The position numbers were made by a program, and so were the translations under genes. The notes under the pieces were generated by a model, which was not told the origin of the DNA, made no database searches, and worked only from the letters and a program-made list of their open reading frames with translations. From the NCBI GenBank assembly GCA_964035575.1, contig OZ037839.1, positions 806,001-870,000 on the forward strand: 64,000 bases of DNA, read 5' to 3'. Below are positions 25,767 to 49,386 of this stretch, in pieces. Every line of letters starts with the position of its first letter. Position 1 is the first letter of the stretch. This stretch comes from Rhynchopus sp. YZ270_cl-10. Its lineage: Eukaryota.

Positions 25767-27317
25767 TTACTTGTCATGTTCCTGCTTGTCCCCGCCCCCT
25801 AGTGCTTGCATCAAAGCTTCTCCTTCCTGTCCTGCTTTCAATGCAATACATTGTCTTGCATCTCCAGACACGTCTGCTTGTACTTCCTCAAAAGCTTCTA
25901 TCCGCACACCTCCGAACTGTTCCGTAAACCTTGCGTAAATCTCACGCACACGTACATAGAAGGTCTTCGTGAGTCCAGTGTCATGGTTCTTTTGGGCTTC
26001 ATTCGGGAGAGACATCTCGTGAATGTCGATGTTGCCTGGCAAGACGACTGTTGTGAGTGCGTTACAGTTGAGCAGGAAGTAACGCTGGATAATTGTGTCC
26101 CTGCCAAAACCTGACATGTCCAGCGTCGTCAAGGACGTGCAATCTTGCAAGAAAGATATATCAATCTGCGTAACATTGCTCATTCCTGAGAAGTCTGCTG
26201 TTGTCAACGCGGAGCACCCTTGCAACCAGCTTGGCTCAATCTCTGTGATGCTGTGCAACACTGATAAATCAACTGTTTTCAATGAAGAACAGTGACCAAG
26301 AAAGCAGTTCTTGATGTCTGTGGCACTCCCAAAAGCTGAAAGGTCGATACTTCCCAGCGAGGTGCAGATCGCAAGAAAGCTGTGCTCTACCTTTACAACT
26401 CTGTGCAGTGCTGATAAGTCAACCGTTTCCAACGAGGTGCAGCCCGCACAAAAGCAGTTCCCAATTTCCGTCACATTCGTCATCCCTGAGAAGCTGATGG
26501 TGGTCAACGACGAGCAGCCGGAGAGAAATCCGGAGCCGATCTTCGTGACACTGCCAAATGCCGACAAATCAATGATTGCCAACGAGGTGCAGTGCGACAG
26601 GAAGCTGTCCTCAATGTGCGTGATTCTGCGCCATCCTGAGATGTCAATCCTTTCCAACGACTGGCAGTTAAACAAGAAGTATGTACCAACCTCCGTCACA
26701 CTCGTCATATGGGATAAGTCAAGATTTGTGACGCCACTTTCACGGAGGAACGAGCTCCCTATCACCGTCACACCAGTGAACCCTGACACGTCAAGACTTG
26801 TCAACGATGGGCAGTCAAAGAGACAGAAACTCCCAATGTGCGTAACGTTGCACAATCCCGACAAGTCAACGGTTTCCAGCGACGCACACCCGGAGAGGAA
26901 GCCTTGCTCAATTCGTGTCACACCAGACACAGCAGAGAGATCAAGTGTCGCGAACGCTGTCTCCTGTAGGAAGCAGTTCGGAATAACAGTCGCAACCTCC
27001 GCCTGAAGAAGCAGAGAAGCCACCTCAGGATCCCTCACAGTCGCCAACCTCGCTTCGGAAATGTCTGTCTCACCCAAGGCACGAAGTGCTTCAACAGATT
27101 TGTACTTCGTCGACTTCGTCAATACGACTGTGTCTCCAGCACTCAGTTCTGTGATGTCCTCTCCTTCCTCCTTCCCTCCGAAGCCCATGCGGAAGCTGTC
27201 TTCGCACAACCCTGTTGCAGACGCCACCTTCTGCCGCATCGTCTCCGTTGTGTCGTTCTCACCCACCTCAATCACGAATTTGGTTTCATCATCGTATCCC
27301 TGCACACACAGTTCCAT
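25767..27317 (-). CDS. UBL + BspA-type LRR protein, paralogue 1 (FG tail lost or frameshifted)
   Basis: Shared N-terminus MELCVQGYDDETKFVIEVGENDTTETMRQKVASATG (beta-grasp-like); about 24-aa repeats IGxxFLxxCxSLxxxDLS. Confidence 0.88.
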   Translation of the reverse strand: MELCVQGYDDETKFVIEVGENDTTETMRQKVASATGLCEDSFRMGFGGKEEGEDITELSAGDTVVLTKSTKYKSVEALRALGETDISEARLATVRDPEVASLLLQAEVATVIPNCFLQETAFATLDLSAVSGVTRIEQGFLSGCASLETVDLSGLCNVTHIGSFCLFDCPSLTSLDVSGFTGVTVIGSSFLRESGVTNLDLSHMTSVTEVGTYFLFNCQSLERIDISGWRRITHIEDSFLSHCTSLAIIDLSAFGSVTKIGSGFLSGCSSLTTISFSGMTNVTEIGNCFCAGCTSLETVDLSALHRVVKVEHSFLAICTSLGSIDLSAFGSATDIKNCFLGHCSSLKTVDLSVLHSITEIEPSWLQGCSALTTADFSGMSNVTQIDISFLQDCTSLTTLDMSGFGRDTIIQRYFLLNCNALTTVVLPGNIDIHEMSLPNEAQKNHDTGLTKTFYVRVREIYARFTEQFGGVRIEAFEEVQADVSGDARQCIALKAGQEGEALMQALGGGDKQEHDK

Positions 27318-27635: not shown

Positions 27636-29129
27636 TTATGCTGCCCCCAACTCTCCAAATCCTCTTTTTGTTCCTCTTTTTTGTCCTCTTTTTTTCACTC
27701 TCTTTTGTCCTGCTTTCAATGTAATACATTGTCTTGCACTTCCAGACACGTCTGTTCGTACTGCCTCAAAAGCTTCCATCCGCACATCTTCGAACTGTTC
27801 CGTAAACCTTGCGTAAATCTCACGCACACGTACAGAGAAGGCCTCCTTGTAGGTGCTCATTCTAGGGTCTCCATTCGGGAGAGACAACATCTCGTCAATG
27901 TCGATGTTGCCTGGCAAGACGACTGTTGTGAGTGCGCTGCAGTTGATCAGGAAGCGGCGATGGATCTCTGTGCTCCTACCTATACCTGACATGTCCAGCG
28001 TCGTCAAGGATGTGCAATCTTTCAGGAAACCACCATCAATCTGTCTAACATTGCTCAGTCCTGATAAGTCTGCTGTTGTCAACGCGGAGCACCCTTCCAT
28101 CCAGCCTGGCCCAATGTGTGTGATGCTGCGCAACACTGATAAATCAACTGTTTTCAATGATGAACACTGCAAAAGAAAGTTGGTCCCGATGCCACAACCC
28201 ACCTTCACAACTTTGTGCAGTGCTGTCGAGTCAATCGTTTCCAACGAGGTGCAGGCCCAACAAAAGCTGTTCCCAATTTCCGTCACATTCGTCATCCCTG
28301 AAAAGCTGATGGTGGTCAACGACTTGCAGTTGAAGAGAAACTCGGAGCCGATCTTCGTGACACTGCAAAAAGCTGACAAATCAATGCTTGCCAACGAGGT
28401 GCAGCTCGACAGGAAGTTGTTCTGAATGTGTGTGATTCTGCGCCATCCTGAGATGTCAATCCTCTTCAACGAATTGCAGGAGGCAAGAAAGTCTGCACCA
28501 ACCTTCGTCACACTCGTCATATGGGATAAGTCAAGATTTGTGACGCCACATCCTTGGAGGAACCTGTTCCCTATCACCGTCACACCAGTGAACCCTGACA
28601 CGTCAAGGCTTCTCAACGATGTGCAGTCATAGAGACAGTAGTCCCCGATGTGCGTAACGTTGCACAATCCCGACAAATCAACGGTTTCCACCGACGCACA
28701 CTTGTAGAGGAAGTAGTCCTCAATTCGTGTCACACCAGACACAGCAGAGAGATCAAGTCTCGTAAACGATGCTTGCGACAAGAACCAGTTCGGAATAACA
28801 GTCGCAACCTCCGCCTGAAGAAGCAGAGAAGCCACCTCAGGATCCTTCACAGTCCGCAACCTCGCTTCGGAAATGTCTGTCTCACCCAAGGCACGAAGTG
28901 CTTCAAGAGATTGGTATTTCGTCGACTTCGTCAATACGACTGTGTCTCCAGCACTCAGTTCTGTGATGTCCTCTCCTTCCTCCTTCCCTCCGAAGCCCAT
29001 GCGGAAGCTGTCTTCGCACAACCCTGTTGCAGACGCCACCTTCTGCCGCATCGTCTCCGTTGTGTCCTTCTCACCCACCTCAATCACGAATTTGGTTTCA
29101 TCATCATATCCCTGCACACACAGTTCCAT
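27636..29129 (-). CDS. UBL + BspA-type LRR protein, paralogue 2
   Basis: Same UBL head and LRR framework, about one repeat deleted; degenerate FG-tail remnant around the stop. Confidence 0.88.
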   Translation of the reverse strand: MELCVQGYDDETKFVIEVGEKDTTETMRQKVASATGLCEDSFRMGFGGKEEGEDITELSAGDTVVLTKSTKYQSLEALRALGETDISEARLRTVKDPEVASLLLQAEVATVIPNWFLSQASFTRLDLSAVSGVTRIEDYFLYKCASVETVDLSGLCNVTHIGDYCLYDCTSLRSLDVSGFTGVTVIGNRFLQGCGVTNLDLSHMTSVTKVGADFLASCNSLKRIDISGWRRITHIQNNFLSSCTSLASIDLSAFCSVTKIGSEFLFNCKSLTTISFSGMTNVTEIGNSFCWACTSLETIDSTALHKVVKVGCGIGTNFLLQCSSLKTVDLSVLRSITHIGPGWMEGCSALTTADLSGLSNVRQIDGGFLKDCTSLTTLDMSGIGRSTEIHRRFLINCSALTTVVLPGNIDIDEMLSLPNGDPRMSTYKEAFSVRVREIYARFTEQFEDVRMEAFEAVRTDVSGSARQCITLKAGQKRVKKRGQKRGTKRGFGELGAA

Positions 29130-29706: not shown

Positions 29707-31416
29707 CTACTCCTGCTTGTGTTGCTCCTGTTTGTCCCGTCCAAACCCTCCAAACCCTCCTGCTTGCAAATCTCCTGTTTGTCCCGTACCAAGCCTCCTC
29801 CTTTTCGTCCTCCCTGTTTGTCCTGCTCCAAGTCCTTCTGATAGTCCTTCTCCTGTTTGTCCTGCCCCAAACCCTCCAAATCCTCCTGCTTGTCCTCGTC
29901 CTGATGTGCTTACATCAGACCGTTCTCTCTCTTGTCCTGCTTTCAATGCAATACATTGTCTTGCACTCCCAGACACGTCTGTTCGTACTGCCTCAAAAGA
30001 TTCTATCCGCACATCTTCGAACTGTTCCGTAAACCTTGCGTAAATGTCACGTACATGTGCATGGAAGGTCTTCGTGCCGTCGCTCAAGCCCACGTTTGCA
30101 TGAATGTCGATATTGCCTGGTACGAAGAGTGTTGTGAGTGCGTTGCAGTTGAGCAGGAAGTCGCAGCTGATTGTTGTGTCACTGCCAAAACCTGATATAT
30201 CCAGCGTGGTCAAGGATGTGCAATCTTGCAGGAAATATGCATCAATCTGCGTAACATTGCTCATTCCTGAGAAGTCTGCTGTTGTCAACGCGGAGCACTC
30301 TTGCATCCAGCCGCCCTCAATATGTGTGATGCTGCGCAACACTGATAAATCAACTGTTTGCAATGATGAACACTCTTTTAGAAACGCTGACCCAACAAAC
30401 CCCCCTGACCCAATGGCTGTGACATTGCCAAAAGCTGAAAGGTCGATACTTCCCAGCGAGGTGCAGCTCTCAAGAAAGCCATACTCTACCTTCACAACCC
30501 TGTGCAGTGCTGATAAGTCAATCGTTTTCAACGAGGTGCAGTACGAACAAAATGCCATGTCAATTTCCGTGACATTGGTCATCCCAGAAAAGCTGACGGT
30601 GGGCAACGACTCGCAGCAGGTGAGAAAGTCGGAGCCGATCTTCGTGACATTGCCAAATGCTGACAAATCAATCGTTGCCAACGAAGTGCTGTGCGACAGG
30701 AAGTTGTTCTCAATGTGCGTGATTCTGTGCCATCCTGAGATGTCAATCTTTTCCAACGACTGGCAGTAGGCAAGAAAGTATGCACCAACCTCCGTCACAC
30801 TCGTCATATGGGATAAGTCAAGCTTTGTGATGCCAGTTCCTTTGAAGAACGAGTCCCCTATCACCGTCACAGCAGTGAACCCTGACACGTCAAGGCTTGT
30901 CAACGATGGGCAGTCAGAGAGAAAGAAACGCCCAATGTGCGTAACGTTGCACAATCCCGACAAATCAACGGTTTCCACCGACCTACAACTGTAGAGGAAG
31001 TGGTGCTCAATTCGTGTCACACCAGACACAGCAGAGAGATCAAGTCTCGTAAACGATGCTTGCGCCAAGAACCAGTGCGGAATAACAGTCGCAACCTCCG
31101 CCTGAAGAAGCAGAGAAGCCACCTCAGGATCCTTCACAGTCGCCAACCTCGCTTCGGAAATGTCTGTCTCACCCAAGGCACGAAGTGCTTCAACAGATTG
31201 GTACTTCGTCGACTTCGTCAACACGACTGTGTCTCCAGCACTCAGTTCTGTGATGTCCTCTCCTTCCTCCTTCCCTCCGAAGCCCATGCGGAAGCTGTCT
31301 TCGCACAACCCTGTTGCAGACGCCACCTTCTGCCGCATCGTCTCCGTTGTGTCGTTCTCACCCACCTCAATCACGTATTTGGTTTCATCATCATATCCCT
31401 GCACACACAGTTCCAT
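29707..31416 (-). CDS. UBL + BspA-type LRR protein, paralogue 3 (short degenerate FG tail)
   Basis: Same architecture; a few GGFGGFG units, then a frameshift before the family C-terminus GFGDLCEE. Confidence 0.88.
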   Translation of the reverse strand: MELCVQGYDDETKYVIEVGENDTTETMRQKVASATGLCEDSFRMGFGGKEEGEDITELSAGDTVVLTKSTKYQSVEALRALGETDISEARLATVKDPEVASLLLQAEVATVIPHWFLAQASFTRLDLSAVSGVTRIEHHFLYSCRSVETVDLSGLCNVTHIGRFFLSDCPSLTSLDVSGFTAVTVIGDSFFKGTGITKLDLSHMTSVTEVGAYFLAYCQSLEKIDISGWHRITHIENNFLSHSTSLATIDLSAFGNVTKIGSDFLTCCESLPTVSFSGMTNVTEIDMAFCSYCTSLKTIDLSALHRVVKVEYGFLESCTSLGSIDLSAFGNVTAIGSGGFVGSAFLKECSSLQTVDLSVLRSITHIEGGWMQECSALTTADFSGMSNVTQIDAYFLQDCTSLTTLDISGFGSDTTISCDFLLNCNALTTLFVPGNIDIHANVGLSDGTKTFHAHVRDIYARFTEQFEDVRIESFEAVRTDVSGSARQCIALKAGQERERSDVSTSGRGQAGGFGGFGAGQTGEGLSEGLGAGQTGRTKRRRLGTGQTGDLQAGGFGGFGRDKQEQHKQE

Positions 31417-31879: not shown

Positions 31880-32228
31880 TTCCACTTCTCCAGGTACTCT
31901 CCCCATATGAACAAGAACTAACAGGTACATGACATGTCTGTATGGAAACAAAGTGCTATTTTCGTTGAAACGCAGCCCTGCAGGTTGTCAAAAAGATCAG
32001 TGTGGCGCACACTGAGAATGAGGCAAACAGGACATAGATGCGTTATCAAATCATCTGAACGTTGTATTTTTTATCAGTTCCTAATCACACCATCGTCATG
32101 GGAAAGAAGGGGCAATAGCTATCGATGCAGGCATTCCTCTGACTGACCCACTGTACGATGCCAGCCATCCAGATGAAAGCACAAACCCCCTCTTGGTATC
32201 GCATACTGAAGCAGCTGAAAGTTGCACT
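31880..32228. repeat. Spacer segment shared by UBL-LRR duplication units (also about 46686-46985, 49651-49980, partly 52980-53035)
   Basis: Near-identical ttccacttctccaggtactctccccatatgaacaagaac...gccagccatccagatgaa. Confidence 0.85.
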
Positions 32229-32423: not shown

Positions 32424-35400
32424 TCACAGGTGTATCCAAAAATGCAGTTCAATAGGTTCACCGAAGTGTTCTTCACACAAATCACCAAACCCTCCAAATC
32501 CCCCTGCTTGTCCTGTTCCTGTTTGTCCACCCCCAAACCCTCCAAACCCTCCTTCTTGTGTTGCTCCTGCTTGTCCTACACCAAACCCTCCAAACCCTCC
32601 TGCTTGTGTTGCTCCTGCTTGTCCTGCACCAAACCCTCCAAATCCTCCCGTTTGTGTTGCTCCTGCTTGTCCTACACCAAACCCTCCAAACCCTCCTGCT
32701 TGTGTTGCTCCTGCTTGTCCTGCACCAAACCCTCCAAATCCTCCTGCTTGTGTTGCTCCTGCTTGTCCAGCCTCCTCCTCCTCCTCGTCCTCGTCGTCAG
32801 ATCCCTTGTTTGCCTGGTACTCGGCGAGCTTGACCTGGTACTCCTTCTTCAGATCAAGCGCCTTCTCGGTGTACTCAGTCTTGTCCTCGTCGTCCATCTC
32901 CCCCCAACGCCTGCCACATTCCTTGGCGATGTCACCAATCTTCCAGTCCGGGTTCTCCTCCTTCAGCTCGGCACGGATGTCGTTGACGAAGATGAAGTAG
33001 GCGCTGAGAGGACGCTTCGGTGCGTTGGGGTCCTCCTTGGCCTTGCGCTTCTTGGGACCTTCGTCCTCCTCCTCGTCCTCGTCGTCAGATCCCTTGTTTG
33101 CCTCACACTCAGCAAGCTTGACCTGGTACTCCGTCTTCAGCTCAGCACCAAACCCTCCAAACCCTCCTGCTTGTGTTGCTCCTGCTTGTCCACCCCCAAA
33201 CCCTCCAAATCCTCCTGCTTGTGTTGCTCCTGCTTGTCCTACACCAAACCCTCCGAATCCTCCCGTTTGTGTTGCTCCTGCTTGTCCTGCACCAAACCCT
33301 CCAAACCCTCCTGCTTGTGTTGCTCCTGTTTGTCCACCCCCAAACCCTCCAAATCCTCCCATTTGTGTTGCTCCTGTTTGTCCAGCCTCCTCCTCCTCCT
33401 CGTCCTCGTCGTCAGATCCCTTGTTTGCCTGGTACTCGGCGAGCTTGACCTGGTACTCCTTCTTCAGATCAAGCGCCTTCTCGGTGTACTCAGTCTTGTC
33501 CTCGTCGTCCATCTCCCCCCAACGCCTGCCACATTCCTTGGCGATGTCACCAATCTTCCAGTCCGGGTTCTCCTCCTTCAGCTCGGCACGGATGTCGTTG
33601 ACGAAGATGAAGTAGGCGCTGAGAGGACGCTTCGGTGCGCTGGGGTCCTCCTTGGCCTTGCGCTTCTTGGGACCTTCGTCCTCCTCCTCGCCCTCGTCGT
33701 CAGATCCCTTGTTTGCCTCACACTCAGCAAGCTTGACCTGGTACTCCGTCTTCAGCTCAGCACCAAACCCTCCAAACCCTCCTGCTTGTGTTGCTCCTGC
33801 TTGTCCTGCACCAAACCCTCCAAATCCTCCTGCTTGTGTTGCTCCTGTTTGTCCACCCCCAAACCCTCCAAATCCTCCTGCTTGTGTTGCTCCTGCTTGT
33901 CCTGCACCAAACCCTCCAAATCCTCCTGTTTGTGTTGCTCCTGTTTGTCCTGTACCAAAGCCTCCAAATCCTCCCATTTGTGTTGCTCCTGTTTGTCCTG
34001 CACCAAACCCTCCAAATCCTCCTGCTTGTGTTGTTCCTGTCTGTCCTACACCAAACGCTCCAAATCCTCCTGTTTGTCCTGCACCAAACCCACCAAACCC
34101 TCCAAATCCTCCTGCTTGTGTTGCTCCTGTTTGTCCTGCACCAAACCCTCCAAACCCTCCTGTTTGTGTTGCTCCTGTTTGTCCTGTACCAAAGCCTCCA
34201 AATCCTCCCATTTGTGTTGCTCCTGTTTGTCCTGCACCAAACCCTCCAAATCCTCCTGCTTGTGTTGTTCCTGTCTGTCCTACACCAAACGCTCCAAATC
34301 CTCCTGTTTGTCCTGCACCAAACCCACCAAACCCTCCAAATCCTCCTGCTTGTGTTGCTCCTGTTTGTCCTGCACCAAACCCTCCAAATCCTCCTGTTTG
34401 TGTTGCTCCTGTTTGTCCTGTACCAAAGCCTCCAAATCCTCCCATTTGTGTTGCTCCTGTTTGTCCTGCACCAAACCCTCCAAATCCTCCTGCTTGTGTT
34501 GTTCCTGTCTGTCCTACACCAAACGCTCCAAATCCTCCTGTTTGTCCTGCACCAAACCCACCAAACCCTCCAAATCCTCCTGCTTGTGTTGCTCCTGTTT
34601 GTCCTGCACCAAACCCTCCAAACCCTCCTGTTTGTGTTGCTCCTGTTTGTCCTGTACCAAACCCTCCAAACCCTCCTGTTTGTGTTGCTCCTGTTTGTCC
34701 TGTACCAAACCCTCCAAACCCTCCTGTTTGTGTTGCTCCTGTTTGTCCTGTACCAAACCCTCCAAATCCTCCTGCTTGTGTTGCTCCTGTTTGTCCTGCA
34801 CCAAACCCTCCAAATCCTCCTGTTTGTGTTGCTCCTGTTTGTCCTGCACCAAACCCTCCAAATCCTCCTGTTTGTGTTGCTCTTGCTTGTCCTGCACCAA
34901 ACCCTCCAAATGCCGCAGTGACGGGCAGGATCTCACGCACCTGCTTCGTTGCAATGTTTGTATGCTGTGCCGTCTTGCCTCTGATGAAAGAGAAGATGAG
35001 GTGCCCCCCAAAAGCGTCTATCCGCTGCACACCTCCGAACTGTTTCCTCGCGTAAATATCACACACACGTGCATGGAAGGTCTGTCGCTTCTCCTTGCTG
35101 ATGCTAAAGCCTACTTTATTCGCGGGACACTGCTGCCTGTTCTCGTTTCTCTTGTGCGCTTCTTTTGGGAGAGACATCTCGTGAATGTCGAAGTTGCCTG
35201 GCACGGAGAGTGATGTGAGTGCGTCGCAGTTGAGCAGGAATCCGTCGACCTCGACCGTTGTGTCACTGGCTATTCCTGACATGTCCAGCGTCGTCAAGGA
35301 TGTGCACTCTTTCAGGAAATTTACACCAATCTGCGTAACATTGCTCAGTCCTGATAAGTCTGCTGTTGTCAACGCAGAACACTTTTGCAACCAGCTGCCC

Positions 35401-36479
35401 TCAATATGTGTGATACTACGCAACACTGATAAATCAACTGTTTTCAATGATGAACACTCAAAAAGAAAGTGGTGTTCGATGTCTGTGGCACTCCCAAAAG
35501 CTGAAAGGTCGATACTTCCCAGCGAGGTGCAGATCGCAAGAAAGCCGTACTCTACCTTCACAACTCTGTGCAGTGCTGATAAGTCAACCGTTTTCAACGA
35601 GGTGCAGTACGAACAAAGCTGGTGCCCAATTTCCGTCACATTCGTCATCCCTGAAAAGCTGATGGTGGTCAACGACGTGCAGGAGTAGAGAAATCGGTGG
35701 CCGATCTTCGTGACACTGCAAAATGCCGACAAATCAATGCTTGCCAACGAGGTGCAGTTATGGAGGAAGCCGTCCTCAATGTGCGTGACTCTGCGCCATC
35801 CTGAGATGTCAATCCTCTCCAACGACTTGCAGTGGCGGAGAAAGTATGCACCAACCTTCGTCACACTCGTCATATGGGATAAGTCAAGATTTGTGACGCC
35901 ACATCCTTGGAGGAACCTGTTCCCTATCACCGTCACACCAGTGAACCCTGACACGTCAAGGCTTGTCAACGATGTGCAGTCAGAGAGACAGGCATTCCCA
36001 ATGTGCGTAACGTTGCACAATCCCGACAAGTCAACGGTTTCCACCGACTCACACCTGAAGAGGAAGCCTTCCTCAATTCGTGTCACACCAGACACAGCAG
36101 AGAGATCAAGTCTCGTAAACGATGCTCTGCACAAGAACTGCTTCGGAATAACAGTCGCAACCTCCGCCTGAAGAAGCAGAGAAGCCACCTCAGGATCCTT
36201 CACAGTCGCCAACCTCGCTTCGGAAATGTCTGTCTCACCCAAGGCACGAAGTGCCTCAACAGATTGGTACTTCGTCGACTTCGTCAACACGACTGTGTCT
36301 CCAGCACTCAGTTCTGTGATGTCCTCTCCTTCCTCCTTCCCTCCGAAGCCCATGCGGAAGCTGTCTTCGCACAACTCTGTTGCAGACGCCACCTTCTGCC
36401 GCATCGTCTCCGTTGTGTCGTTCTCACCCACCTCAATCACGTATTTGGTTTCATCATATCCCTGCACACACAGTTCCAT
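32424..36479 (-). CDS. UBL + LRR + long FG-repeat tail with two HMG boxes, paralogue 4 (about 1351 aa from MELCVQ)
   Basis: Continuous ORF: UBL, LRRs, (GGFGGFGAGQTGATQA)n, two copies of PKRPLSAYFIFVNDIRAELKEENPDWKIGDIAKECGRRWGEM (HMG box), end GDLCEEHFGEPIELHFWIHL. Confidence 0.88.
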   Translation of the reverse strand: MELCVQGYDETKYVIEVGENDTTETMRQKVASATELCEDSFRMGFGGKEEGEDITELSAGDTVVLTKSTKYQSVEALRALGETDISEARLATVKDPEVASLLLQAEVATVIPKQFLCRASFTRLDLSAVSGVTRIEEGFLFRCESVETVDLSGLCNVTHIGNACLSDCTSLTSLDVSGFTGVTVIGNRFLQGCGVTNLDLSHMTSVTKVGAYFLRHCKSLERIDISGWRRVTHIEDGFLHNCTSLASIDLSAFCSVTKIGHRFLYSCTSLTTISFSGMTNVTEIGHQLCSYCTSLKTVDLSALHRVVKVEYGFLAICTSLGSIDLSAFGSATDIEHHFLFECSSLKTVDLSVLRSITHIEGSWLQKCSALTTADLSGLSNVTQIGVNFLKECTSLTTLDMSGIASDTTVEVDGFLLNCDALTSLSVPGNFDIHEMSLPKEAHKRNENRQQCPANKVGFSISKEKRQTFHARVCDIYARKQFGGVQRIDAFGGHLIFSFIRGKTAQHTNIATKQVREILPVTAAFGGFGAGQARATQTGGFGGFGAGQTGATQTGGFGGFGAGQTGATQAGGFGGFGTGQTGATQTGGFGGFGTGQTGATQTGGFGGFGTGQTGATQTGGFGGFGAGQTGATQAGGFGGFGGFGAGQTGGFGAFGVGQTGTTQAGGFGGFGAGQTGATQMGGFGGFGTGQTGATQTGGFGGFGAGQTGATQAGGFGGFGGFGAGQTGGFGAFGVGQTGTTQAGGFGGFGAGQTGATQMGGFGGFGTGQTGATQTGGFGGFGAGQTGATQAGGFGGFGGFGAGQTGGFGAFGVGQTGTTQAGGFGGFGAGQTGATQMGGFGGFGTGQTGATQTGGFGGFGAGQAGATQAGGFGGFGGGQTGATQAGGFGGFGAGQAGATQAGGFGGFGAELKTEYQVKLAECEANKGSDDEGEEEDEGPKKRKAKEDPSAPKRPLSAYFIFVNDIRAELKEENPDWKIGDIAKECGRRWGEMDDEDKTEYTEKALDLKKEYQVKLAEYQANKGSDDEDEEEEEAGQTGATQMGGFGGFGGGQTGATQAGGFGGFGAGQAGATQTGGFGGFGVGQAGATQAGGFGGFGGGQAGATQAGGFGGFGAELKTEYQVKLAECEANKGSDDEDEEEDEGPKKRKAKEDPNAPKRPLSAYFIFVNDIRAELKEENPDWKIGDIAKECGRRWGEMDDEDKTEYTEKALDLKKEYQVKLAEYQANKGSDDEDEEEEEAGQAGATQAGGFGGFGAGQAGATQAGGFGGFGVGQAGATQTGGFGGFGAGQAGATQAGGFGGFGVGQAGATQEGGFGGFGGGQTGTGQAGGFGGFGDLCEEHFGEPIELHFWIHL
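32472..34911. repeat. Coding minisatellite: 48-bp FG unit, 234-bp higher-order repeat (x3), 615-bp FG+HMG duplication
   Basis: Unit accaaaccctccaaatcctcctgcttgtgttgctcctgtttgtcctgc; offsets of 234 bp (34046/34280/34514) and 615 bp (33000/33615) visible. Confidence 0.95.
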
Positions 36480-37058
36480 TGTTTCGAGTGAAGTGTTGCT
36501 CTGTTGTGGGGTAAGTGTTGAGAAGGAGGAGGAGGGAGGCAAGATATAACAAAATAGCTTTCCTATTTAACTTGCCGGTTGTGAGAAGAGAGAAATGGAA
36601 AATATTTTAAAGATCAACCTAGGCATGCTTGAAAGGGGGCAAACGTTGGCTTATGCATTGCAGATGTGATCTGGAAGACGGGGTGTGGAAAGTGTAAGCG
36701 CCTCACCGTGGGGGTGGGGGGCAGGCGCTCAGTTCGAGCATCGTGTTCGTTTGGCTTTCAATAGACAGTGACATTGCAGTTGTGTCAACACGTTTGTCCT
36801 TGCGCAAAAGAAGGCTAGAATTGATAAAAGGACGAACTCATGTCGGCAGACCACAACTATCTTCGCAAAGAAGAAGAGATGAACAGAGAATTTGAAACGT
36901 CGTGCACACACATCATTACCACCATCGTTATCGCGCTTGGAGCACGTTGTGTTTGAAGATAGGCTGTGTCTTCATCACAAACGTGCTTTTCATGGAATCA
37001 GTGTAAAAAATCATCCGAGAACCGGATTGTGTACTTACATCAGTCTCACGCAAACCTG

Positions 37059-39769: not shown

Positions 39770-40769
39770 GTAACCCCACATAGGCCCATTACCATGGTTT
39801 CGTTAGCCCTTGTGACATGCCCTCCTGCAGTTTCCTGCTCATCGGCGGCCTCTAGTCCGTGTGGACTTGGGCCACTACCAGCTTCCGGAGGAGCGACGCT
39901 CACGTGCGACCGTCGGACCGGTCACTGCTCTGGGTGCCATGTGCTCTAGCCAATTCTTGACGAGGATGGGGGTGCAGACCGCCAAGTCCGGACGGTCGGA
40001 GGGAACCTTCCCCACCGCACGTCAGTTCTCCTTAGCTCTTTGTGACTTGACTCGTGCCGGTGCTGGTGTCTACAAGCTTCAACCTCTTCTTGTGACCCAC
40101 CGAGCACGCAGCCAACAGTGCGTCAAACCCTCAGGATCCACAAATCAATGGTTGCCAACGAAGTGCAATAATAGAGGAAGTTGTCCTCAATGTGCGTGAT
40201 TCTGCGCCATCCTGAGATGTCAAGACTTTTCAACGAGTTGCAGTAGGCAAGAAAGTGTGCACCAACCTTCGTCACACTCGTCATCTCGGATAAGTCAAGA
40301 TTTGTGACGCCACTTGCTTGTAGGAATAACTTCCCTAACACCGTCACACCAGTGAACCCTGACACGTCAAGGCTTGTCAACGATGTGCAGTCATAGAGAC
40401 AGTAGTCCCCGATGTGCGTAACGTTGCACAATCCCGACAAGTCAACGGTTTCCACCGACGTACACCTGTAGAGGAAGCCTTCCTCAATTCGCGTCACACC
40501 AGACACAGCAGAGAGATCAAGTCTCGTAAACGATGCTTCGCTCAAGAACCAGTTCGGAATAACAGTCGCAACCTCCGCCTGAAGAAGCAGAGAAGCCACC
40601 TCAGGATCCTTCACAGTCCGCAACCTCGCTTCGGAAATGTCTGTCTCACCCAAGGCACGAAGTGCTTCAACAGATTGGTACTTCGTCGACTTCGTCAACT
40701 GTAGGGGTCCGTTTTCGATGCATGCACCCCTATCCGAGATAGGTGATACAATACATCGTGGAGGTGATG

Positions 40770-43700
40770 TTACATAAGTCCATCACCGCCCCTGCTGTGT
40801 CCATCCTTCTGCTTCTTCTTGCTGAAGAGGCCTCCCAACGTCGTCTGTCGCCCCCCCGCAGTGTCGTGGTGGCGGCGGCAGCAGTGGTCCAGGGTTGTCT
40901 TGTCCCGCACGCAATTTCCGCATCTCGAGAGTCTGTGTCGTGTGCACGCCTCGTGTCGAATGGCCAGCCCATCGCCGTCGGAGTGGTGCGCATAGCAGCA
41001 GTGCCTCAGGTCTGCCATCTGGTCCTTCGCACAGGCGTCACATCGGGCCTTCCGGTGCTGCACACAGATCGCAAATGGCCCAATCGAGATCGCTCCTGCA
41101 GGTGCCTTCACAGGCGCGTCTCCTGGTTTCACGTGCTCATCGTGCCTGTAACGTATGGGCACGTTCTCCTCTTCTGCCTGCTCGAAAAAGCGCAGCGCCC
41201 TCCTTCCCCTCTCGTCTGCGGGGGGGTATGCCGTCTCAGCAGCGTACTCCCCCATCCACGTACCCCTCGCTCTACCGTTGCCCCTAATCTCCCCCTCCGT
41301 CATGCCTTCCGTCTTGCGCTGCTGTCGGTACGCCGTGCCAGCGTCGAAAAGTGCACGTAGAACACGTATGGTCTCTTCACCGCCGGCAAAAACAGGACGG
41401 CAGTCGATACCGGCGAGACCGTGTGCCCCGAACGACGTCAGTGTCATAGCTATCTTCGGCTTACCCGGATGCAGTGGCGTTGCAGCATGGGTTCGGAGAG
41501 TAGACAGCATGTGACCAAAAGTGGTCGCTTTCGCCATTTCGTTGTGGGGAAGAGCTTCTGGCATCACGTCGTCGCCGTCGCCGTCGTCGCTGCCACCCTC
41601 CCCACCCCCGTCATCCATTTCCCCGTCGCCACCCCCACCACCATTGACCACGCCCCCAGCCCCGTTCCCCGGTTGCTTCACTTTTGGCGGCTTTTTTCCA
41701 GTCTTATCTCCGGGGCGGATGTCCATCCCCGTGGAGACCTCGAAGTCAATGAGGAGTTCCATGTGCGAGACTTCGCGTCCAGCCTCGTTGCTCCACCGTA
41801 GGCCTCCCAGCCAGTAGGCAATCGCCAGCAGCAACGCACGTCCATACGGCCATTTCTTCACTGGGAGGGTGCAGCTTCCTAACACATTCGGATACTGCGT
41901 CGTCGTGTCCGCATCCGGTTCCCATGTCCACGGATAACGCTCTTGCTCCAGTTGCGGCTTCATCTCTTGTGTCCTGTTTTGCCGGTATCGCTCGATGAGG
42001 ATCCTCACCATCATCATCTGCAGGTCTGCAACACGGGCGGTGGCCAAAGGTGTTTCCGGTGTGCACATTCCGCAGATAGACAGACAGTTCGGCCAGTTCG
42101 TTCTGTCAATGTTCAGGAGTAAGGGGTAGTCCGTGCGGATGCTTTCCCATGCGACACACTCCCACCACATATGCTTGGGATCCTCATCCACCCCTGCAGC
42201 ACAATACGGGCAGGTGGCCGTTTCTCGTAACTTTGCCCTCGCAAGTCGCACCCCCGTGAGAGTACCGTCAGCCACGATGTGTCGTAACGTCCCCGCCTCG
42301 TAGTCCGACAAAACTTTGCTCTTGGTAAGCGCCAGTGTCTTCTCCTTGTCCACCCCTGCTCGGATCCCCCGCAGGTTAGCTCTGCCTCCGCCTTTTGCAT
42401 TCACGTCTGTCTTCGTACTGGAGAGCCGTACGAAGAACATGCGCTCCCGCACAAGATGGCCGAGTTCCCCTAGCTCAATGGTCTTCACATCGATGAGGTT
42501 CCCGTCGTGCGTCGTCACTGTCGTGGCGCTCTCCCATTTCCAGTTGAGGCGGAGTAGAGCGCGTGCAACCAACCCGATGGGCCCCCCAGACTTCGCTTGC
42601 TTCCGTTTCGCTCGTACCCTGCAGTTCTCAAGCAGTGCACAGATCTCCTCCGACTTGCGCGTCATCTTAGCCCACGTCATGATCCGTCTGTAGTCGAAGG
42701 CCACCCCGGGGTCGAGTAGGTGGCCTTTCTCGAAGAGATTCAACATGACCCTGGTACTCCGTCGGCTCACCCGATTAGCGCCGTGTATTCCTCTCTCCAT
42801 CGCATTACCCAGGGTGGTCTCACAACAAACGTTAGGGTCCTGCACTGTGATCCCGTACACCGACTTGGACATCACTGCGGCCTGCATGATGCCCGCTTTT
42901 TCCCCTTGCGTCAACGGAAGGCGGCCTACCTTATCTGATAGTGGACCACATTCCCTGATCGTCTCTTCCAGTTTCGTCGGGAGCGTGGGCGCACCAGCTT
43001 GACGGGCCTGCACCGTCGCCCCCAGGCAGACCGACTTCTCGACGCGAGTGAGATCGGAGCCGTTCATCTGCACAGTTTCTTCTTCGTCAGGGCGATTGCT
43101 CTGCCACGTGCTCTTCCCCACGTGGATGCGCTGTCCCGTCAAGTCTGCGAAGTGTCCGGTGAAGGTGACTCCCGTTCGTAGCTGACTGAGTGTTTTCGTC
43201 AGGAGATTGGTGTCGTCTGCGTATGCCAATCCCTGCGTGCCCGTTTCCCTCTCTACCCCGTTCATCCACACCGCCACCAACGCATTCAGGAAGATGACAC
43301 TCAGCGGGCATCCTTGGAGGATACCGTTCGTCGCAAACCACTCTTGTCCAAGACCAGCCGGGAGTTTAAAACGCCTCCCCAGCTTCTTGTACATCCCACG
43401 GATGGGTCGCATCATATTCTGCGGCAGGCCTAGCTGTTCGACCAGGCGGAACATAATCTCCTGTGGCACTCTGTCAAAACACTTTTGGTAGTCGAAGGAG
43501 GCTAGATAGATAGGTGTGTTGTCTATCAGAGCCTCCTCCATCTTCGCACAAAGATACCACAGTAGGTCTTCGGTTCCATGCTTGTTGCGGAAGCCGTGCT
43601 GGCGTTGGTGTATCCACGACTCTTGCCACGCTGCTACTTTGCGGAGACGAGTCGCCGCCCATAACCTGTACATCACACTGGTGATGGTAATGGGACGCTG

Positions 43701-45770
43701 CTTCAGCGGTTCCTCGCCTTCTCCTTTGGGGATGAGCACCACCATAGCCCTCGCAATTGCCCTGGGCCAGTTTCCTGTCTCCTCAATCACGTTCAGGCAG
43801 CACGCTAGCTCTTCCAGCATTAACGGAGGTAGTTCCTTCAGCTCCTCCACTCTCCATCCATCGAGGCCTGCCGCCTTCTTCCGCTTCATCTTGCCGATGG
43901 TCTTGCTGAGGTCCTCGCCGGTCAAAGGTCCGCAGTCACAGGGTGCCCCCTCGGGAATGTGCTCCTTGAACCTCTCGAAGAAGGTCGCCCATGCAGGTTC
44001 CTCGGATTCGCCGTACATCCGGAACACCCCTCCCCACGCCTGGTCACCCATAAGAAGCTCGTCCATCTCCTTGAGGTTGGCAGTCACAGTGCCGTCCTCT
44101 CGTTTCAGGAAAGTCGTGTGCGAAGACGTGGCTTTTCTTAACGTCTGGAAGACCTTCTCGGGGCTTGACGTCATGTGTTCCTTCATGGAGCGACGCCATT
44201 CTCGGATGCGTTTCTGTCGTCGGCGCTCGAGTAAGGCCAGCCCTTGCTTCTTTAGGCACCCAAGGAGACCACACAACGCTTCTACGTCGGGGTGTTCGAG
44301 ACCCCAAGTGTCGTTCTGCAGAAGATGTCGTTTCGCACGCGCTTTCGCCCACAGGTGTCTCTCATCCACCGATTCCGCAGAAGGTTGGCCGATGCGCTTC
44401 CTCCGTCCACCAATGAGTTGTTCCAGTTGTCGACACGTCTTCTGCAACTGAGCCGTCTCCAGGTTCACAGCATCAGGCATGTCGGGGTCCGTGCGAGCCG
44501 ACCGATGTCGCAATACATCAGGTTTCACCTCACCTCTCCCCCTGTGGCGGTGCTGTTTTGCCTCAATCTCACCCCTCCGCAGGAAGTAGTCCTCTGCAGT
44601 TTTGCAAAAGCGAGCCCAACGCTCCTCAACAGATAGCTTCTCGAGTTCGGCGTCGGTGAGTGCGTTCTCTTGCAGCACCTCTCTCGCAAGCACCTTCTCC
44701 TTGGCAGCCGGCCATTTGGACCAATCCTCGCCAATCAGGGGTAGGGGAGGACGTGCTTGGGGAGCCTTCTGCTCGTAACACTCGAGGTCCAGTGTCAGCA
44801 CCACCGGCCTGTGGGTGGAGATGCAGCTGTCAGTCCAGACCTCCACTTTGGAGATTGCAGGAGCAGCCACGTGGTTCGCCAATACCAGGTCGATGCGGCT
44901 GCCAGAAGATGTGGAGGTGTAGCACGTTTTCTCCACTTCCGTACCCGACTGCTGCGCGTACGAGTCTGCTGCATCAACCCATTTTCCGGAGGAGATTGCC
45001 GCTCGGATGACAGCGCTCTCCTGTGCCTCGACGTTGAAGTCTCCGGCAATGAACACCGGTATGTCCCCAAGGCTGGCAGCTTCCTCCAGGATGTCTGTCA
45101 GGAGTAGTTCCGTGCGGGCCTTGTCGTCACACACACCATAAAACGAGAAGACAGAGATGTTGCGTCCTCCGTTCCCATAAGCCACCTGCGCATGTGACAG
45201 ACGACATTCCTCCCATGCTTTCTGGGCACCCTGCGGCGGTACCGCTCTGGTTGGTATGTCTGCGCGCGACATGATCGCAACCCCACCGTTTTGTGTCCGT
45301 GTGCGCAGGTCGGATCCTCGGCTTCGTCTGCAGGGGGCACCAAAGAGGATCTGTTTGGCGCCAAACTCCTTAACGGCAAGCGCAGCACCCTTCATCTCAT
45401 CCGCTGTGAGGCGCACTTCCTGCAGCGCGCAGATGTCCAGATCCCATTCCCCCACCGCGAAGTGTGCCGACAAGGATGTCACATTCGCAGTGCCAAGCAT
45501 CATGGACGGACCCGGATTCTCCTCCACGTCTCCACATGTCAGCAGTGACCCCCTGCCCAAAAACGCCCCCCGTCGCCTCCCTCGACGCACTCTTTGTCGA
45601 GCCCCTCGACCCACCCCTCTACGTGTTCTACCCTTACCCCTAGTCCCCGACAGCATACAGCCCGCAGAGCGCAAACGATGCTGACCCCTTGTTGGGGAGA
45701 CAGTTTTCACAAAAACGTCTCGTTCTCCAACTACGCACGAAGAAGCCAATCCTGTGCCGTACCCTTCCAC
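40770..45770 (-). CDS. LINE pol ORF: 2A-like peptide, AP endonuclease, reverse transcriptase, CCHC finger, C-terminal Cys/His repeats
   Basis: GDVEENPGP; APE motifs (ANV, LQEV, AGDFN, SRIDLVL, STHRPV); RT motifs (AAGLDG, QRPIT, QHGFR, FDYQKCFDRV, GILQGCPLS, YADD, CLG); CPYC-x9-H-x4-C. Confidence 0.95.
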   Translation of the reverse strand: MEGYGTGLASSCVVGERDVFVKTVSPTRGQHRLRSAGCMLSGTRGKGRTRRGVGRGARQRVRRGRRRGAFLGRGSLLTCGDVEENPGPSMMLGTANVTSLSAHFAVGEWDLDICALQEVRLTADEMKGAALAVKEFGAKQILFGAPCRRSRGSDLRTRTQNGGVAIMSRADIPTRAVPPQGAQKAWEECRLSHAQVAYGNGGRNISVFSFYGVCDDKARTELLLTDILEEAASLGDIPVFIAGDFNVEAQESAVIRAAISSGKWVDAADSYAQQSGTEVEKTCYTSTSSGSRIDLVLANHVAAPAISKVEVWTDSCISTHRPVVLTLDLECYEQKAPQARPPLPLIGEDWSKWPAAKEKVLAREVLQENALTDAELEKLSVEERWARFCKTAEDYFLRRGEIEAKQHRHRGRGEVKPDVLRHRSARTDPDMPDAVNLETAQLQKTCRQLEQLIGGRRKRIGQPSAESVDERHLWAKARAKRHLLQNDTWGLEHPDVEALCGLLGCLKKQGLALLERRRQKRIREWRRSMKEHMTSSPEKVFQTLRKATSSHTTFLKREDGTVTANLKEMDELLMGDQAWGGVFRMYGESEEPAWATFFERFKEHIPEGAPCDCGPLTGEDLSKTIGKMKRKKAAGLDGWRVEELKELPPLMLEELACCLNVIEETGNWPRAIARAMVVLIPKGEGEEPLKQRPITITSVMYRLWAATRLRKVAAWQESWIHQRQHGFRNKHGTEDLLWYLCAKMEEALIDNTPIYLASFDYQKCFDRVPQEIMFRLVEQLGLPQNMMRPIRGMYKKLGRRFKLPAGLGQEWFATNGILQGCPLSVIFLNALVAVWMNGVERETGTQGLAYADDTNLLTKTLSQLRTGVTFTGHFADLTGQRIHVGKSTWQSNRPDEEETVQMNGSDLTRVEKSVCLGATVQARQAGAPTLPTKLEETIRECGPLSDKVGRLPLTQGEKAGIMQAAVMSKSVYGITVQDPNVCCETTLGNAMERGIHGANRVSRRSTRVMLNLFEKGHLLDPGVAFDYRRIMTWAKMTRKSEEICALLENCRVRAKRKQAKSGGPIGLVARALLRLNWKWESATTVTTHDGNLIDVKTIELGELGHLVRERMFFVRLSSTKTDVNAKGGGRANLRGIRAGVDKEKTLALTKSKVLSDYEAGTLRHIVADGTLTGVRLARAKLRETATCPYCAAGVDEDPKHMWWECVAWESIRTDYPLLLNIDRTNWPNCLSICGMCTPETPLATARVADLQMMMVRILIERYRQNRTQEMKPQLEQERYPWTWEPDADTTTQYPNVLGSCTLPVKKWPYGRALLLAIAYWLGGLRWSNEAGREVSHMELLIDFEVSTGMDIRPGDKTGKKPPKVKQPGNGAGGVVNGGGGGDGEMDDGGGEGGSDDGDGDDVMPEALPHNEMAKATTFGHMLSTLRTHAATPLHPGKPKIAMTLTSFGAHGLAGIDCRPVFAGGEETIRVLRALFDAGTAYRQQRKTEGMTEGEIRGNGRARGTWMGEYAAETAYPPADERGRRALRFFEQAEEENVPIRYRHDEHVKPGDAPVKAPAGAISIGPFAICVQHRKARCDACAKDQMADLRHCCYAHHSDGDGLAIRHEACTRHRLSRCGNCVRDKTTLDHCCRRHHDTAGGRQTTLGGLFSKKKQKDGHSRGGDGLM

Positions 45771-45782
45771 CGCACCACACCG

Positions 45783-46195
45783 TCACCGCACCACATCGCG
45801 CAGGGTGTTGCGGCCTACTATCCTGTTGTCCAGTCCCTGGACGGGACGAAACGCGATCTCGATGACGCCCCCCGCCACCTTCACGACAGTCACCGGGATG
45901 GCTGCGCCGTTGCCTCCCTCCTCGCAGTACTCCATGGAGTCGCCAGCCTCCAGCACTGCGTTCCCGTACGACTCCTCGTTCTTCTCGTTCCCCTCCGCCT
46001 GCTCTTTTGCGGGGACTTCCGTCCGTATCCTGCGCGGCGGACTCAGCAGCGCCACCGTCTCACCGGACTCACTGCGGTCTTCCCGCTTGCCCGCCAGGGT
46101 CACAGCAGGTGGCGCCACCGGCACTCTGGGAGCTGGCGAGGTCTCCGCGTCCTCCTCGACAGCCGCACATTCTGGCGAAGTCTGCACCGGCAGTG
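45783..46195 (-). CDS. 3' remnant of LINE upstream ORF (ORF1-like), in frame with pol
   Basis: Open from the element's 5' junction to TGA at 45785-45783; acidic/Pro-rich stretch, then a short beta-rich segment. Confidence 0.55.
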
Positions 46196-47250
46196 TTCGT
46201 CGACTTCGTCAACACGACTGTGTCTCCAGCACTCAGTTCTGTGATGTCCTCTCCTTCCTCCTTCCCCCCAAAGCCCACATGAAAGCTGTCTTCGCACAAC
46301 CCTGTTGCAGACGCCACCTTCTGCCGCATCGTCTCCGTTGTGTCGTTCTCACCCACCTCAATCACGTATTTGTTTTCATCATCATATCCCTGCACACACA
46401 GTTCCATTGTTTCGAGTGAAGTGTTGCTCTGTTGTGGGGTAAGTGTTGAGAAGGAGGAGGAGGGAGGCAAGATACAACAAAATAGCTTTCCTTTTTTGTT
46501 TTTGAGTATACGAGAATCGTCATATAAAAAATAAAACTCTGTTTTTAGATCTTGCGCCGAATTACTCCCCATACTCATTCACTCAGGACAGTAATTCGAG
46601 CGATCAACGAAAAAACCTATCCTCTTTTTTTCCACGATTTCGTTTGTTTTGACTGAATATCTATCTAAAAAAGGAAGAGTTTTGTTTTCCACTTCTCCAG
46701 GTACTCTCCCCATATGAACAAGAACTGACAGGTACATGACATGTCTGTATGGAAACAAAGTACTATTTTCGTTGAAACGCAGCCCTGCAGGTTGTCAAAA
46801 TGATCAGTGTGGCGCACACTGAGAATGAGGCAAACAGGAAATAGATGCGTTATCAAATAACCTGAACGTTGTATTTCTTATCTGTTCCTAATCACACCAT
46901 CGTCGTGGGAAAGAAGGGGGAATAGCTCTCGATACAGGCATTCCTCCGACTGACCCACTGTACGATGCCAGCCATCCAGATGAAGGCGCAATACAATAAG
47001 CAGCTATCGCGAACAATGAAAGAGTTTTTTCAGGCAAGGTATGTGGTAAGAGGAAGAATAAAACATTACGAACAAACCTCCACCCTCATTCGCAAGCTTC
47101 ACTTCCGCTTTGGTTTTCTCCTCACATGAAACAATTAAATTACTGGGGTAGAATAATTTCGTTCCTTTGTGAATGCAAAAATCCACACCAAAGATTTTAT
47201 CCTCCACGTATCATACGTGGGACAAGGGAAATAATACTTTACCCAAGAGC

Positions 47251-49386
47251 TCACAGGTGTATCCAAAAATGCAGTTCAATAGGTTCACCGAAGTGTTCTT
47301 CACACAAATCACCAAACCCTCCTGCTTGTGCTGTTCCTGCTTGTCCTGCCCCAAACCCTCCAAACCCTCCTGCTTGTCCTGCTCCTGTTTGTCCTGCTCC
47401 AAACCCTCCAAATCCTCCTGCTTGTGTTGCTCCTTCTTGTCCTGCACCAAACCCTCCAAATCCTCCTGCTTGTGTTGCTCCTTCTTGTCCTGCACCAAAC
47501 CCTCCAAACCCTCCTGCTTGTGTTGCTCCTTCTTGTCCTGCCCCAAACCCTCCAAATCCTCCTGCTTGTCCTGCTCCTGTTTGTCCTGCTCCAAACCCTC
47601 CAAATCCTCCTGCTTGTGTTGCTCCTTCTTGTCCTGCACCAAACCCTCCAAATCCTCCTGCTTGTCCTGCTCCTGTTTGTCCTGCACCACACCCTCCAAA
47701 TCCTCCTGCTTGTGTTGCTCCTGTTTGTCCTGCCCCAAACCCTCCAAACCCTCCTGCTTGTCCTGCTCCTGTTTGTCCTGCACCAAACCCTCCAAATCCT
47801 CCTGCTTGTGTTGCTCCTGCTTGTCCTGCCCCAAACCCTCCAAATCCTCCTGCTTGTCCTGCTCCTGTTTGTCCTGCCCCAAACCCTCCAAATCCTCCTG
47901 CTTGTGTTGCTCCTGCTTGTCCTGCCCCAAACCCTCCAAATCCTCCTGCTTGTGTTGCTGCTGTTTGTCCTGCTTTCAATGCAATACATTGTCTTGCATC
48001 TCCAGACGCGTCTTGTCCTGCTGCCTTAAAGCGTACTACCCGCACACCTCTGGACTGTTTAGCAAACATTGCGTACATTACACGCGCCCGCACATGAAAC
48101 GGTACCGACCTGCACCGCAGCATGCTACGCTCCTCATTTGATAACTTCTCGTCAATGTCGATGTTGCCTGGAAAGACGACTGTTATGAGTGCGTTGCAGT
48201 TGCGCGGGAATTGGCTTCCGACCTGCGCGTCGATCATCGTGTCCCTACCTATTCCTGACATGTCCAGCGTCGTCAAGGATGTGCACCCTTGCAGGAAATA
48301 TTCTTGAATCCGTTTAACATGGCTCATTACAGAGAAGTCTGCTGTTGTCAACGCGGAGCAGTTAACAAGAAAGTAGTGCCCGATGTCTGCGACACTGCCC
48401 AAAGCTGAAAGGTCGATACTTCCCAGCGAGGTGCAGCCCTTCAGAAAGCCTTGCCCTACCTTCATAACTTTGTGCAGTGCTGATAAGTCAATCGTTTCCA
48501 ACGAGATGCAGTCCCTACAAAAGCTGTCCCCAAGTTCCGTCACGTTGGTCATCCCTGAAAAGTTGATGGTGGTCAACGACTTGCAGTGGCCGAGAAAGTC
48601 GGAGCCGATCTTCGTGACACTGCAAAAAGCTGACAAATCAATGGTTGTCAACGAGAAGCAGCTCTGGAGGAAGTTGCCCTCAATGTGCGTGATTTTGCGC
48701 AATACTGAGATGTCAATCTTTTCCAACGATTTGCAGCTGAGAACAAAGCCTGCACCAACCTTCGTCACACTCGTCATCGCGGATAAGTCAAGATTTGTGA
48801 CGCCACTTCCTGCGAGGAACCTGTTCCCTATCACCGTCACACCAGTGAACCCTGACACGTCAAGGCTTGTCAACGATGGGCAGTAAGAGAGACAGGCATT
48901 CCCAATGTGCGTAACGTTGCACAATCCCGACAAGTCAACGGTTTCCACCGACGCACACCCGTAGAGGAAGTAGTCCTCAATTCGTGTCACCCCAGACACA
49001 GCAGAGAGATCAAGTCTCGTAAACGATGCTCTGCACAAGAACTGCTTCGGAATAACAGTCGCAACCTCCGCCTGAAGAAGCAGAGAAGCCACCTCAGGAT
49101 CCTTCACAGTCGCCAACCTCGCTTCGGAAATGTCTGTCTCACCCAAGGCACGAAGTGCTTCAACAGATTGGTACTTCGTCGACTTCGTCAACACGACTGT
49201 GTCTCCAGCACTCAGTTCTGTGATGTCCTCTCCTTCCTCCTTCCCTCCGAAGCCCATGCGGAAGCTGTCTTCGCACAACCCTGTTGCAGACGCCACCTTC
49301 TGCCGCATCGTCTCCGTTGTGTCGTTCTCACCCACCTCAATCACGTATTTGGTTTCATCATCATATCCCTGCACACACAGTTCCAT
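47251..49386 (-). CDS. UBL + LRR + FG-repeat tail, paralogue 6
   Basis: UBL head, LRRs, about 13-14 AGGFGGFGAGQxGAxQ units (about 47299-47970), same C-terminus as paralogue 4. Confidence 0.9.
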   Translation of the reverse strand: MELCVQGYDDETKYVIEVGENDTTETMRQKVASATGLCEDSFRMGFGGKEEGEDITELSAGDTVVLTKSTKYQSVEALRALGETDISEARLATVKDPEVASLLLQAEVATVIPKQFLCRASFTRLDLSAVSGVTRIEDYFLYGCASVETVDLSGLCNVTHIGNACLSYCPSLTSLDVSGFTGVTVIGNRFLAGSGVTNLDLSAMTSVTKVGAGFVLSCKSLEKIDISVLRKITHIEGNFLQSCFSLTTIDLSAFCSVTKIGSDFLGHCKSLTTINFSGMTNVTELGDSFCRDCISLETIDLSALHKVMKVGQGFLKGCTSLGSIDLSALGSVADIGHYFLVNCSALTTADFSVMSHVKRIQEYFLQGCTSLTTLDMSGIGRDTMIDAQVGSQFPRNCNALITVVFPGNIDIDEKLSNEERSMLRCRSVPFHVRARVMYAMFAKQSRGVRVVRFKAAGQDASGDARQCIALKAGQTAATQAGGFGGFGAGQAGATQAGGFGGFGAGQTGAGQAGGFGGFGAGQAGATQAGGFGGFGAGQTGAGQAGGFGGFGAGQTGATQAGGFGGCGAGQTGAGQAGGFGGFGAGQEGATQAGGFGGFGAGQTGAGQAGGFGGFGAGQEGATQAGGFGGFGAGQEGATQAGGFGGFGAGQEGATQAGGFGGFGAGQTGAGQAGGFGGFGAGQAGTAQAGGFGDLCEEHFGEPIELHFWIHL

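Follow-up and report, generated by a model that had tools for sequence, protein, structure and literature searches.

Several described systems come close to the genes reported here. T. brucei Nup158, an FG protein with 10.3 FG per 100 aa and G/A/Q/T spacers, phase-separates (PMC4283134), and FG domains can also act as perinuclear addresses: C. elegans GLH-1/2/4, RDE-12 and DDX-19 carry one, and its deletion from GLH-1 impairs perinuclear localisation; the main text of that review names no LRR, UBL or HMG protein among its non-nucleoporin FG proteins (PMC8311347). NUP98 fusions form chromatin-associated condensates, as described in a source that lists the HMGB3 fusion and gives condensate data on the HOXA9 and NSD1 fusions (PMC11423334). 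Among leucine-rich repeat proteins, members of the BspA-like families in Entamoeba and Trichomonas are assigned to the cell surface, with a proposed CaaX anchoring (PMC5349171). The window analysed here, the whole 64-kb stretch (64,000 nucleotides) of Rhynchopus sp. YZ270_cl-10 contig OZ037839.1, contains a single gene family in seven copies (p1 to p7), all on the minus strand:

25767..27317, minus strand: p1, ending in a +1-frame-like remnant of a 48-bp unit
27636..29129, minus strand: p2, with a degenerate remnant of the 48-bp unit at its 3' end
29707..31416, minus strand: p3, with two FG units ahead of a frameshift; the C-terminal motif falls after the stop, in a different frame
32424..36479, minus strand: p4 ORF, 1351 aa, UBL-LRR-FG-HMG-FG-HMG-FG-C-terminus
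40140..46407, minus strand: p5, interrupted by a non-LTR retrotransposon that is marked by an 18-bp target-site duplication; the 3' part is truncated
47251..49386, minus strand: p6, 711 aa, UBL-LRR-FG tail with 25 FG and no HMG; sister of p4
53581..54663, minus strand: p7, a more distant, tail-less UBL-LRR gene

In all six intact copies Pfam finds LRR_5 repeats and, weakly, ubiquitin. An AF2 model of p6 residues 1-470 (mean pLDDT 88.4) places a header of beta-grasp-like topology (pLDDT about 70-85) before a helical linker and an LRR solenoid, and its best PDB fold matches, 4fs7 and 4gt6, are bacterial BspA-type proteins; Pfam, model and fold match thus agree on LRR_5 repeats forming a solenoid, the mark of BspA/TpLRR proteins. 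The initial annotation had called the header a UBL: the Pfam matches fall below cut-off (E 0.0003-0.005), but the beta-beta-alpha-beta-beta domain in the p6 model would fit one.

Other elements share the window with these genes. The retrotransposon in p5 (element about 40700-46180) carries a minus-strand ORF (40770-45656) with APE endonuclease and RT domains (Pfam) and, near its N-terminus, a 2A-like LLTCGDVEENPGP motif, which we take to resemble the 2A-like sequences of L1Tc/ingi. Between p4 and p5 sits a minus-strand ORF of 358 aa (37059-38135) with no Pfam match, for which a UBL-like start was considered and found unsupported (E 0.15), and a 300-350-bp intergenic element has three copies close to the paralogues, 90-95% identical (31879-32227, 46686-46991 and 49651-49980). 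Three further minus-strand ORFs are an uninterrupted one of 3948 aa (602-12448), presumably a SPRY/HECT ubiquitin ligase to judge by its motifs; one of 584 aa (22380-24134) with several hydrophobic stretches and no Pfam match, whose C-terminal part bears what we take to be a likeness to a degenerate nucleotide cyclase; and one of 547 aa (60027-61670) with motifs that we assume to be cytochrome P450-like. A perfect 7-bp tandem array of ACACAGT (30.9 copies, 100% matches) occupies 62795-63010.

The longest FG tail belongs to p4, which reads as follows from its upstream region to its stop codon:

36480..36555, minus strand: region upstream of the p4 ATG, with a polypyrimidine tract and an AG about 22 nt before the ATG
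36282..36479, minus strand: ubiquitin-like header, aa 1-66, Pfam ubiquitin E 0.005, below cut-off
35190..36119, minus strand: BspA/TpLRR-type solenoid with hypervariable positions, Pfam LRR_5 E 7e-29
34911..35189, minus strand: linker, partly unique to p4, with a donor-like CAG/GTGCG at 34940
33759..34910, minus strand: FG block 1, 384 aa, 53 FG, 0.3% charged
33384..33758, minus strand: HMG module 1, 375 bp, 125 aa
33144..33383, minus strand: FG block 2, 80 aa, 10 FG
32769..33143, minus strand: HMG module 2, 375 bp, 125 aa, 2 nt different from module 1
32490..32768, minus strand: FG block 3, 93 aa, 11 FG
32424..32489, minus strand: 21-aa C-terminus and stop, common to p6

The polypyrimidine/AG element, which is likewise present upstream of p1, p2, p3 and p6, appears trans-splice-acceptor-like. 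Behind the header, a short helical linker (aa about 67-110) leads to a solenoid of about 12 LRR units of 24-25 aa each; in FG block 1, the 48-bp unit is arranged within a 234-bp higher-order repeat; and HMG module 1 runs from the end of one box through an acidic linker and KKRK to a full HMGB-type box and an acidic tail. Pfam finds HMG, a leucine-rich repeat and weak ubiquitin in p4 and nothing else. The HMG_box match (PF00505, E 2.6e-43) falls in two in-frame stretches and spans positions 1-68 of 69, a full box, and the best PDB match of the module is HMGB1 (E 9.7e-26). The aligned Phe and Ile of HMGB1 box B, which we take to be the intercalating residues of that box, are kept in p4. The initial annotation had thus described only half of this tail: the FG repeats it saw as an uncharged, nucleoporin-like run are real, and the FG blocks are 0-1.8% charged, but it missed the two in-frame HMG boxes that interrupt them, and because these modules are about 50% charged, the tail as a whole is 15.9% charged. 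It had also pointed to a conserved short C-terminus. The last 23 aa are indeed identical between p4 and p6, but this reflects recent copying, since their near-identity continues about 50 bp beyond the stop codon; in p1-p3 the corresponding DNA is either degenerate or preceded by a stop or frameshift.

The 48-bp arrays were recovered by TRF (scores 366-1709) where they had first been reported, in frame with the UBL-LRR ORFs of p4 and p6:

33760-34911: p4 array, 24.4 copies
33146-33384: p4 array, 5.0 copies
32483-32768: p4 array, 6.0 copies
47312-47973: p6 array, 13.8 copies

They share the consensus unit GGFGGFGAGQTGATQA, present in frame in 43 full copies (30 in p4 and 13 in p6), and at the level of sequence its nucleoporin-like character holds, both in the GGFGGFG core and in an FG density like that of Nsp1/Nup62 and Nup54. 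The core is common to the p4/p6 unit, Lacrimia lanifica Nsp1 (P0198), Nup54 (P0331) and P0256. FG density amounts to 13.8 per 100 aa in p4 block 1, 11.3 in p6, 13.5 in Lacrimia Nsp1 and 12.0 in Nup54 P0331, and charged residues make up 2.3% of the p6 slice and 0% of both Lacrimia Nsp1 and Nup54 P0331, so that p4 and p6 have the dense, low-charge FG domain (11-14 FG per 100 aa) expected of an FG nucleoporin. The composition of their tails fits that of phase-separating Nup98-type FG domains (PMC4283134). Since a Pfam scan finds no pore-anchoring domain (Nsp1_C, Nup54 coiled coil, Nucleoporin2 etc.) in either protein, p4 and p6 are, judged by their domains, not nucleoporins.

No nucleoporin with the exact unit appeared among the 123 hits of a phmmer search of 1.84 billion representatives, nor among the 29 hits of a word search (7986 scored, proteins of 423-2000 aa). 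The sole close match is an ankyrin-repeat protein (P0188) whose C-terminus carries the p4/p6 unit (GQTGATQ-GGFG). A GGFGAVRT variant in P0188 does not occur in the window but appears in a loose contig end of short-read runs X1 and X2, which hints that P0188 belongs to the same lineage; an ESM Atlas search with P0188 gave generic ankyrins only. In P0311, DUF4116 repeats are followed by a C-terminal FG tail built from a unit unlike that of p4/p6, possibly an independent gain; a UBL header considered for this protein is unsupported (E 0.09). Searches of metagenome and viral contigs returned 0 matches to the 48-bp unit pattern and no related loci, and ESM Atlas hits for the UBL-LRR part were all under 0.9.

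The origin of the HMG modules can be traced more closely. A stand-alone two-box HMG protein of 210 aa (P0122) resembles the donor: it is 90% identical over 92% of the p4 module, and the match begins with the last part of box A and takes in the acidic linker, the basic linker, box B and the acidic tail. The nearest named relatives come from Rhynchopus euleeides and Diplonema papillatum, which makes a diplonemid the likely host of the locus, and HMGB/Nhp6-type proteins in general (R. euleeides P0123, D. papillatum KAJ9444422.1, HMGB1) share with p4 the HMGB-type box, basic linker and acidic tail; unlike the two-box proteins, p4 keeps just box two with its flanking parts, in two copies set among FG repeats. 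Both p4 copies lie in a 615-bp tandem duplication and differ at 2 of 375 nt, both changes altering a residue. The junctions read FGA/ELK and EEA/GQ. In run X2, a loose contig end carries an HMG acidic tail ending EAGQKKRKT, which agrees with the window as far as AGQ. Ala-Gly-Gln is thus common to a donor-type tail and the repeat unit, which suggests that the HMG module was captured by recombination at microhomology. Both junctions keep strand and frame, an outcome expected about once in 18 times by chance, although microhomology could also set the phase.

Short-read contigs support the p4 region as genomic: the linker (34929-35304) is present letter for letter in X1 and X2, which come from two studies, one of them possibly the source of the window, and three of the four runs compared contain an exact HMG core, which could derive from the donor gene. 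The HMG1-specific base at 33025 was seen in X2 and X4, and contigs of X1 and X2 join the HMG acidic tail in frame to the FG repeat as an E-V-G-Q variant. The comparison omits 32729-32802 as repeat; over 33129-33144 neither X1 nor X2 has a contig, and that of X4 has 6 differences, and the X4 contig at 34890-35299 enters the array by about 20 letters, too few to bridge it. Contig support for p4 hence covers the linker, the HMG core and a junction variant, as distinct from the window's own junction letters and the two-copy state.

The family to which these genes belong is large. Of 7994 candidates scored in an LRR search, 297 were hits. Among the 120 matches listed, 104 have the full header, all of them ENA gene calls from long contigs; the named Flectonema and Papus hits lack it. 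The exact p4 and p6 sequences are absent from the protein collection searched, and its closest members are 73-85% identical to p1-p4 and p6 of the window. Motif rules sort the C-termini of 110 members with a header into predicted classes: 46 are NLS-like (bipartite), 18 CxxX and 4 TM-like, and these ends (including P0012-P0108) cluster on a quick version of the family tree. In that tree, p1-p4 and p6 form one clade of 15 with ten database proteins (SH-aLRT 99), in which p4 and p6 are sisters (support 86) and the only two members with a long in-frame FG tail; GGFG occurs in none of the ten database members, and five of these close with words read in the +1 frame of the unit. Variation in the LRR is concentrated: across the five window paralogues, 5 of the 25 register positions have pN at 3.5-5.7 times the pooled pS, and the remaining 20 stay at 1.5 or less, most of them under 1. 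A diversifying binding surface shows such a pattern, to which gene conversion may contribute.

A long in-frame FG tail is the minority state in the subfamily, seen in 2 of its 15 members, and this favours a possible explanation that we take seriously, namely that the tail is a neutral by-product: a 3' coding minisatellite of a birth-and-death family that expanded by slippage, fell by chance into the FG frame in one branch, took up an HMG fragment and stayed unselected in whatever protein is made. The frameshifted remnants in p1-p3 and the disruption of p5 by the retrotransposon agree with it, as does the unit itself: all six frames of its consensus are open, so that the open FG frame proves little. 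In the FG frame, 9 of the 25 distinct variants of the unit are synonymous (P 0.22), and although the GGFGGFG part alone reaches 6 of 10 (P 0.018), two others of the 18 frame/part combinations tested score lower (P 0.004 and 0.005); because other combinations do as well or better, the variants give no convincing sign of codon-level selection on the unit. What a by-product leaves unaccounted for is the match between the p4/p6 unit and the nucleoporin FG core of the lineage, the intact, in-frame state of the HMG modules (with the in-frame junction variant in two studies) and the passage of 43 units and the internal indels of p4 and p6 without frameshift or stop, though here the periodicity of the unit favours multiples of three.

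We regard it as doubtful that the array goes untranslated, as an intron or as DNA beyond the mRNA end, leaving the gene to yield a plain UBL-LRR protein. The donor-like site at 34940 stands just before the p4 array, and in D. papillatum gene-adjacent tandem arrays are described as lying outside the mRNA (PMC10161547). However, p4 and p6 both read into the array without meeting a stop, the acceptor-like sites within the HMG modules (33619 and 33004) are out of phase with the donor at 34940, and p6 is without such a linker, its conserved QCIALKAGQ running directly into the units.

If the tail is translated, what could it do? A role in localisation, as proposed from the start, is plausible because the other C-termini of the family are NLS-like, CxxX or TM-like; the proposal had missed the HMG modules, which point p4 toward chromatin and not just the pore. 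The best reading is that FG (and HMG) constitutes another address tail in a recent chimera. The suggestion that the tail is a nucleoporin decoy fared less well. Extended to a defence function, it holds that viral or symbiont factors which engage FG nucleoporins or DNA are lured by the FG tail, and by HMG in the role of DNA sensor, to the variable LRR and the ubiquitin-like handle; the diversification of the LRR would fit host-parasite conflict, and FG tails occur on three types of solenoid, yet a bait under conflict should itself diversify and the p4/p6 units are homogeneous, and Pfam identifies neither a partner nor a catalytic effector domain. With no direct support for it, we consider the decoy highly improbable.

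Our tentative preference is for a history in which p4 and p6 may well be recent copies of a lineage-specific UBL-LRR family whose 48-bp unit expanded in the FG frame, with p4 likely capturing its HMG module from a two-box HMG gene and the tail likely serving as a nuclear address if translated. We infer that one subfamily carried the unit at its 3' end and that the expansion took place in the ancestor of p4 and p6; ectopic recombination at short matching codons (probably Ala at the 5' junction and Ala-Gly-Gln at the 3' junction) would then have imported 375 bp of an HMG gene, and the 615-bp tandem duplication would have doubled the module. In the resulting proteins, the hypervariable LRR is predicted to bind variable ligands, the KKRK linker to give nuclear import, the HMG boxes to bind bent DNA with no sequence preference, and the FG blocks either to engage transport receptors or to enter FG phases. 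Lacking an anchor domain, p6 would be only loosely associated with pores, and p4 might, by analogy with NUP98 fusions, form chromatin-bound FG puncta.

The FG tails of two further solenoid proteins, the ankyrin protein P0188 and the DUF4116 protein P0311, speak for this account. In a bolder, rather unlikely version of it, the lineage would swap C-terminal address modules on intracellular variable-LRR sensors, with FG added repeatedly on LRR, ankyrin and DUF4116 proteins, and p4 would be the natural counterpart of NUP98::HMGB3, nucleating chromatin-bound condensates with a hypervariable LRR and a ubiquitin-like handle and possibly guarding the nucleus against viruses or symbionts.

The UBL-LRR-FG-HMG architecture is real in the DNA, and its function is a prediction. 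It had been noted as unfamiliar, and the combination was not found in print, in a literature search that covered few subscription papers. As it stands, p4 appears to be a domain capture in progress, with donor, junction microhomology and tandem duplication all still readable. Should the tail prove not to be made or selected, the locus counsels caution, for FG-like tails can then arise from a minisatellite open in six frames; if the p4 protein is made, diplonemids become a place to test FG repeats as portable nuclear addresses, and a test ground for intracellular LRR recognition in these abundant protists.

Set against the described systems, each part of p4 and p6 has a counterpart. The channel FG nucleoporins Nsp1/Nup62, Nup54 and Nup58 share the core, the density, the near-zero charge and the G/A/T/Q spacers, but diplonemid channel Nups have A/S spacers where the p4/p6 unit has a Q/T-rich one, and in p4/p6 the FG region stands C-terminal to UBL-LRR, with no Nsp1_C, Nup54 or Nucleoporin2 domain. 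The C. elegans GLH, RDE-12 and DDX-19 proteins join FG to DEAD-box helicases, unlike the UBL-LRR of p4 and p6. Like the UBL-LRR family, the BspA-like families of Entamoeba and Trichomonas have LRR_5 repeats and about 100 paralogues; here many ends are NLS-like, whereas for those families the consulted text of the source describes no UBL header and no FG or HMG tail (PMC5349171). Crinkler/RHS (CR) proteins likewise combine an N-terminal Ubl header with variable C-termini, according to the parts of the source consulted (PMC5289972), a likeness of headers by description; in p4 and p6, Pfam detects no NTPase, REase or kinase domain, nor the enzymatic C-terminal toxin domain of a CR effector. The closest parallel to p4 is found among the NUP98 fusions, notably NUP98::HMGB3, where an FG domain is likewise joined to an HMG-box DNA-binding module, by analogy rather than homology. 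In contrast to that fusion, p4 is encoded in a protist genome assembly, alternates FG with two HMG modules and has UBL-LRR in front; should p4 be expressed as protein, nature would have produced an FG-HMG fusion on a diversifying LRR, and FG-HMG fusions were found in print only among leukaemia translocations.
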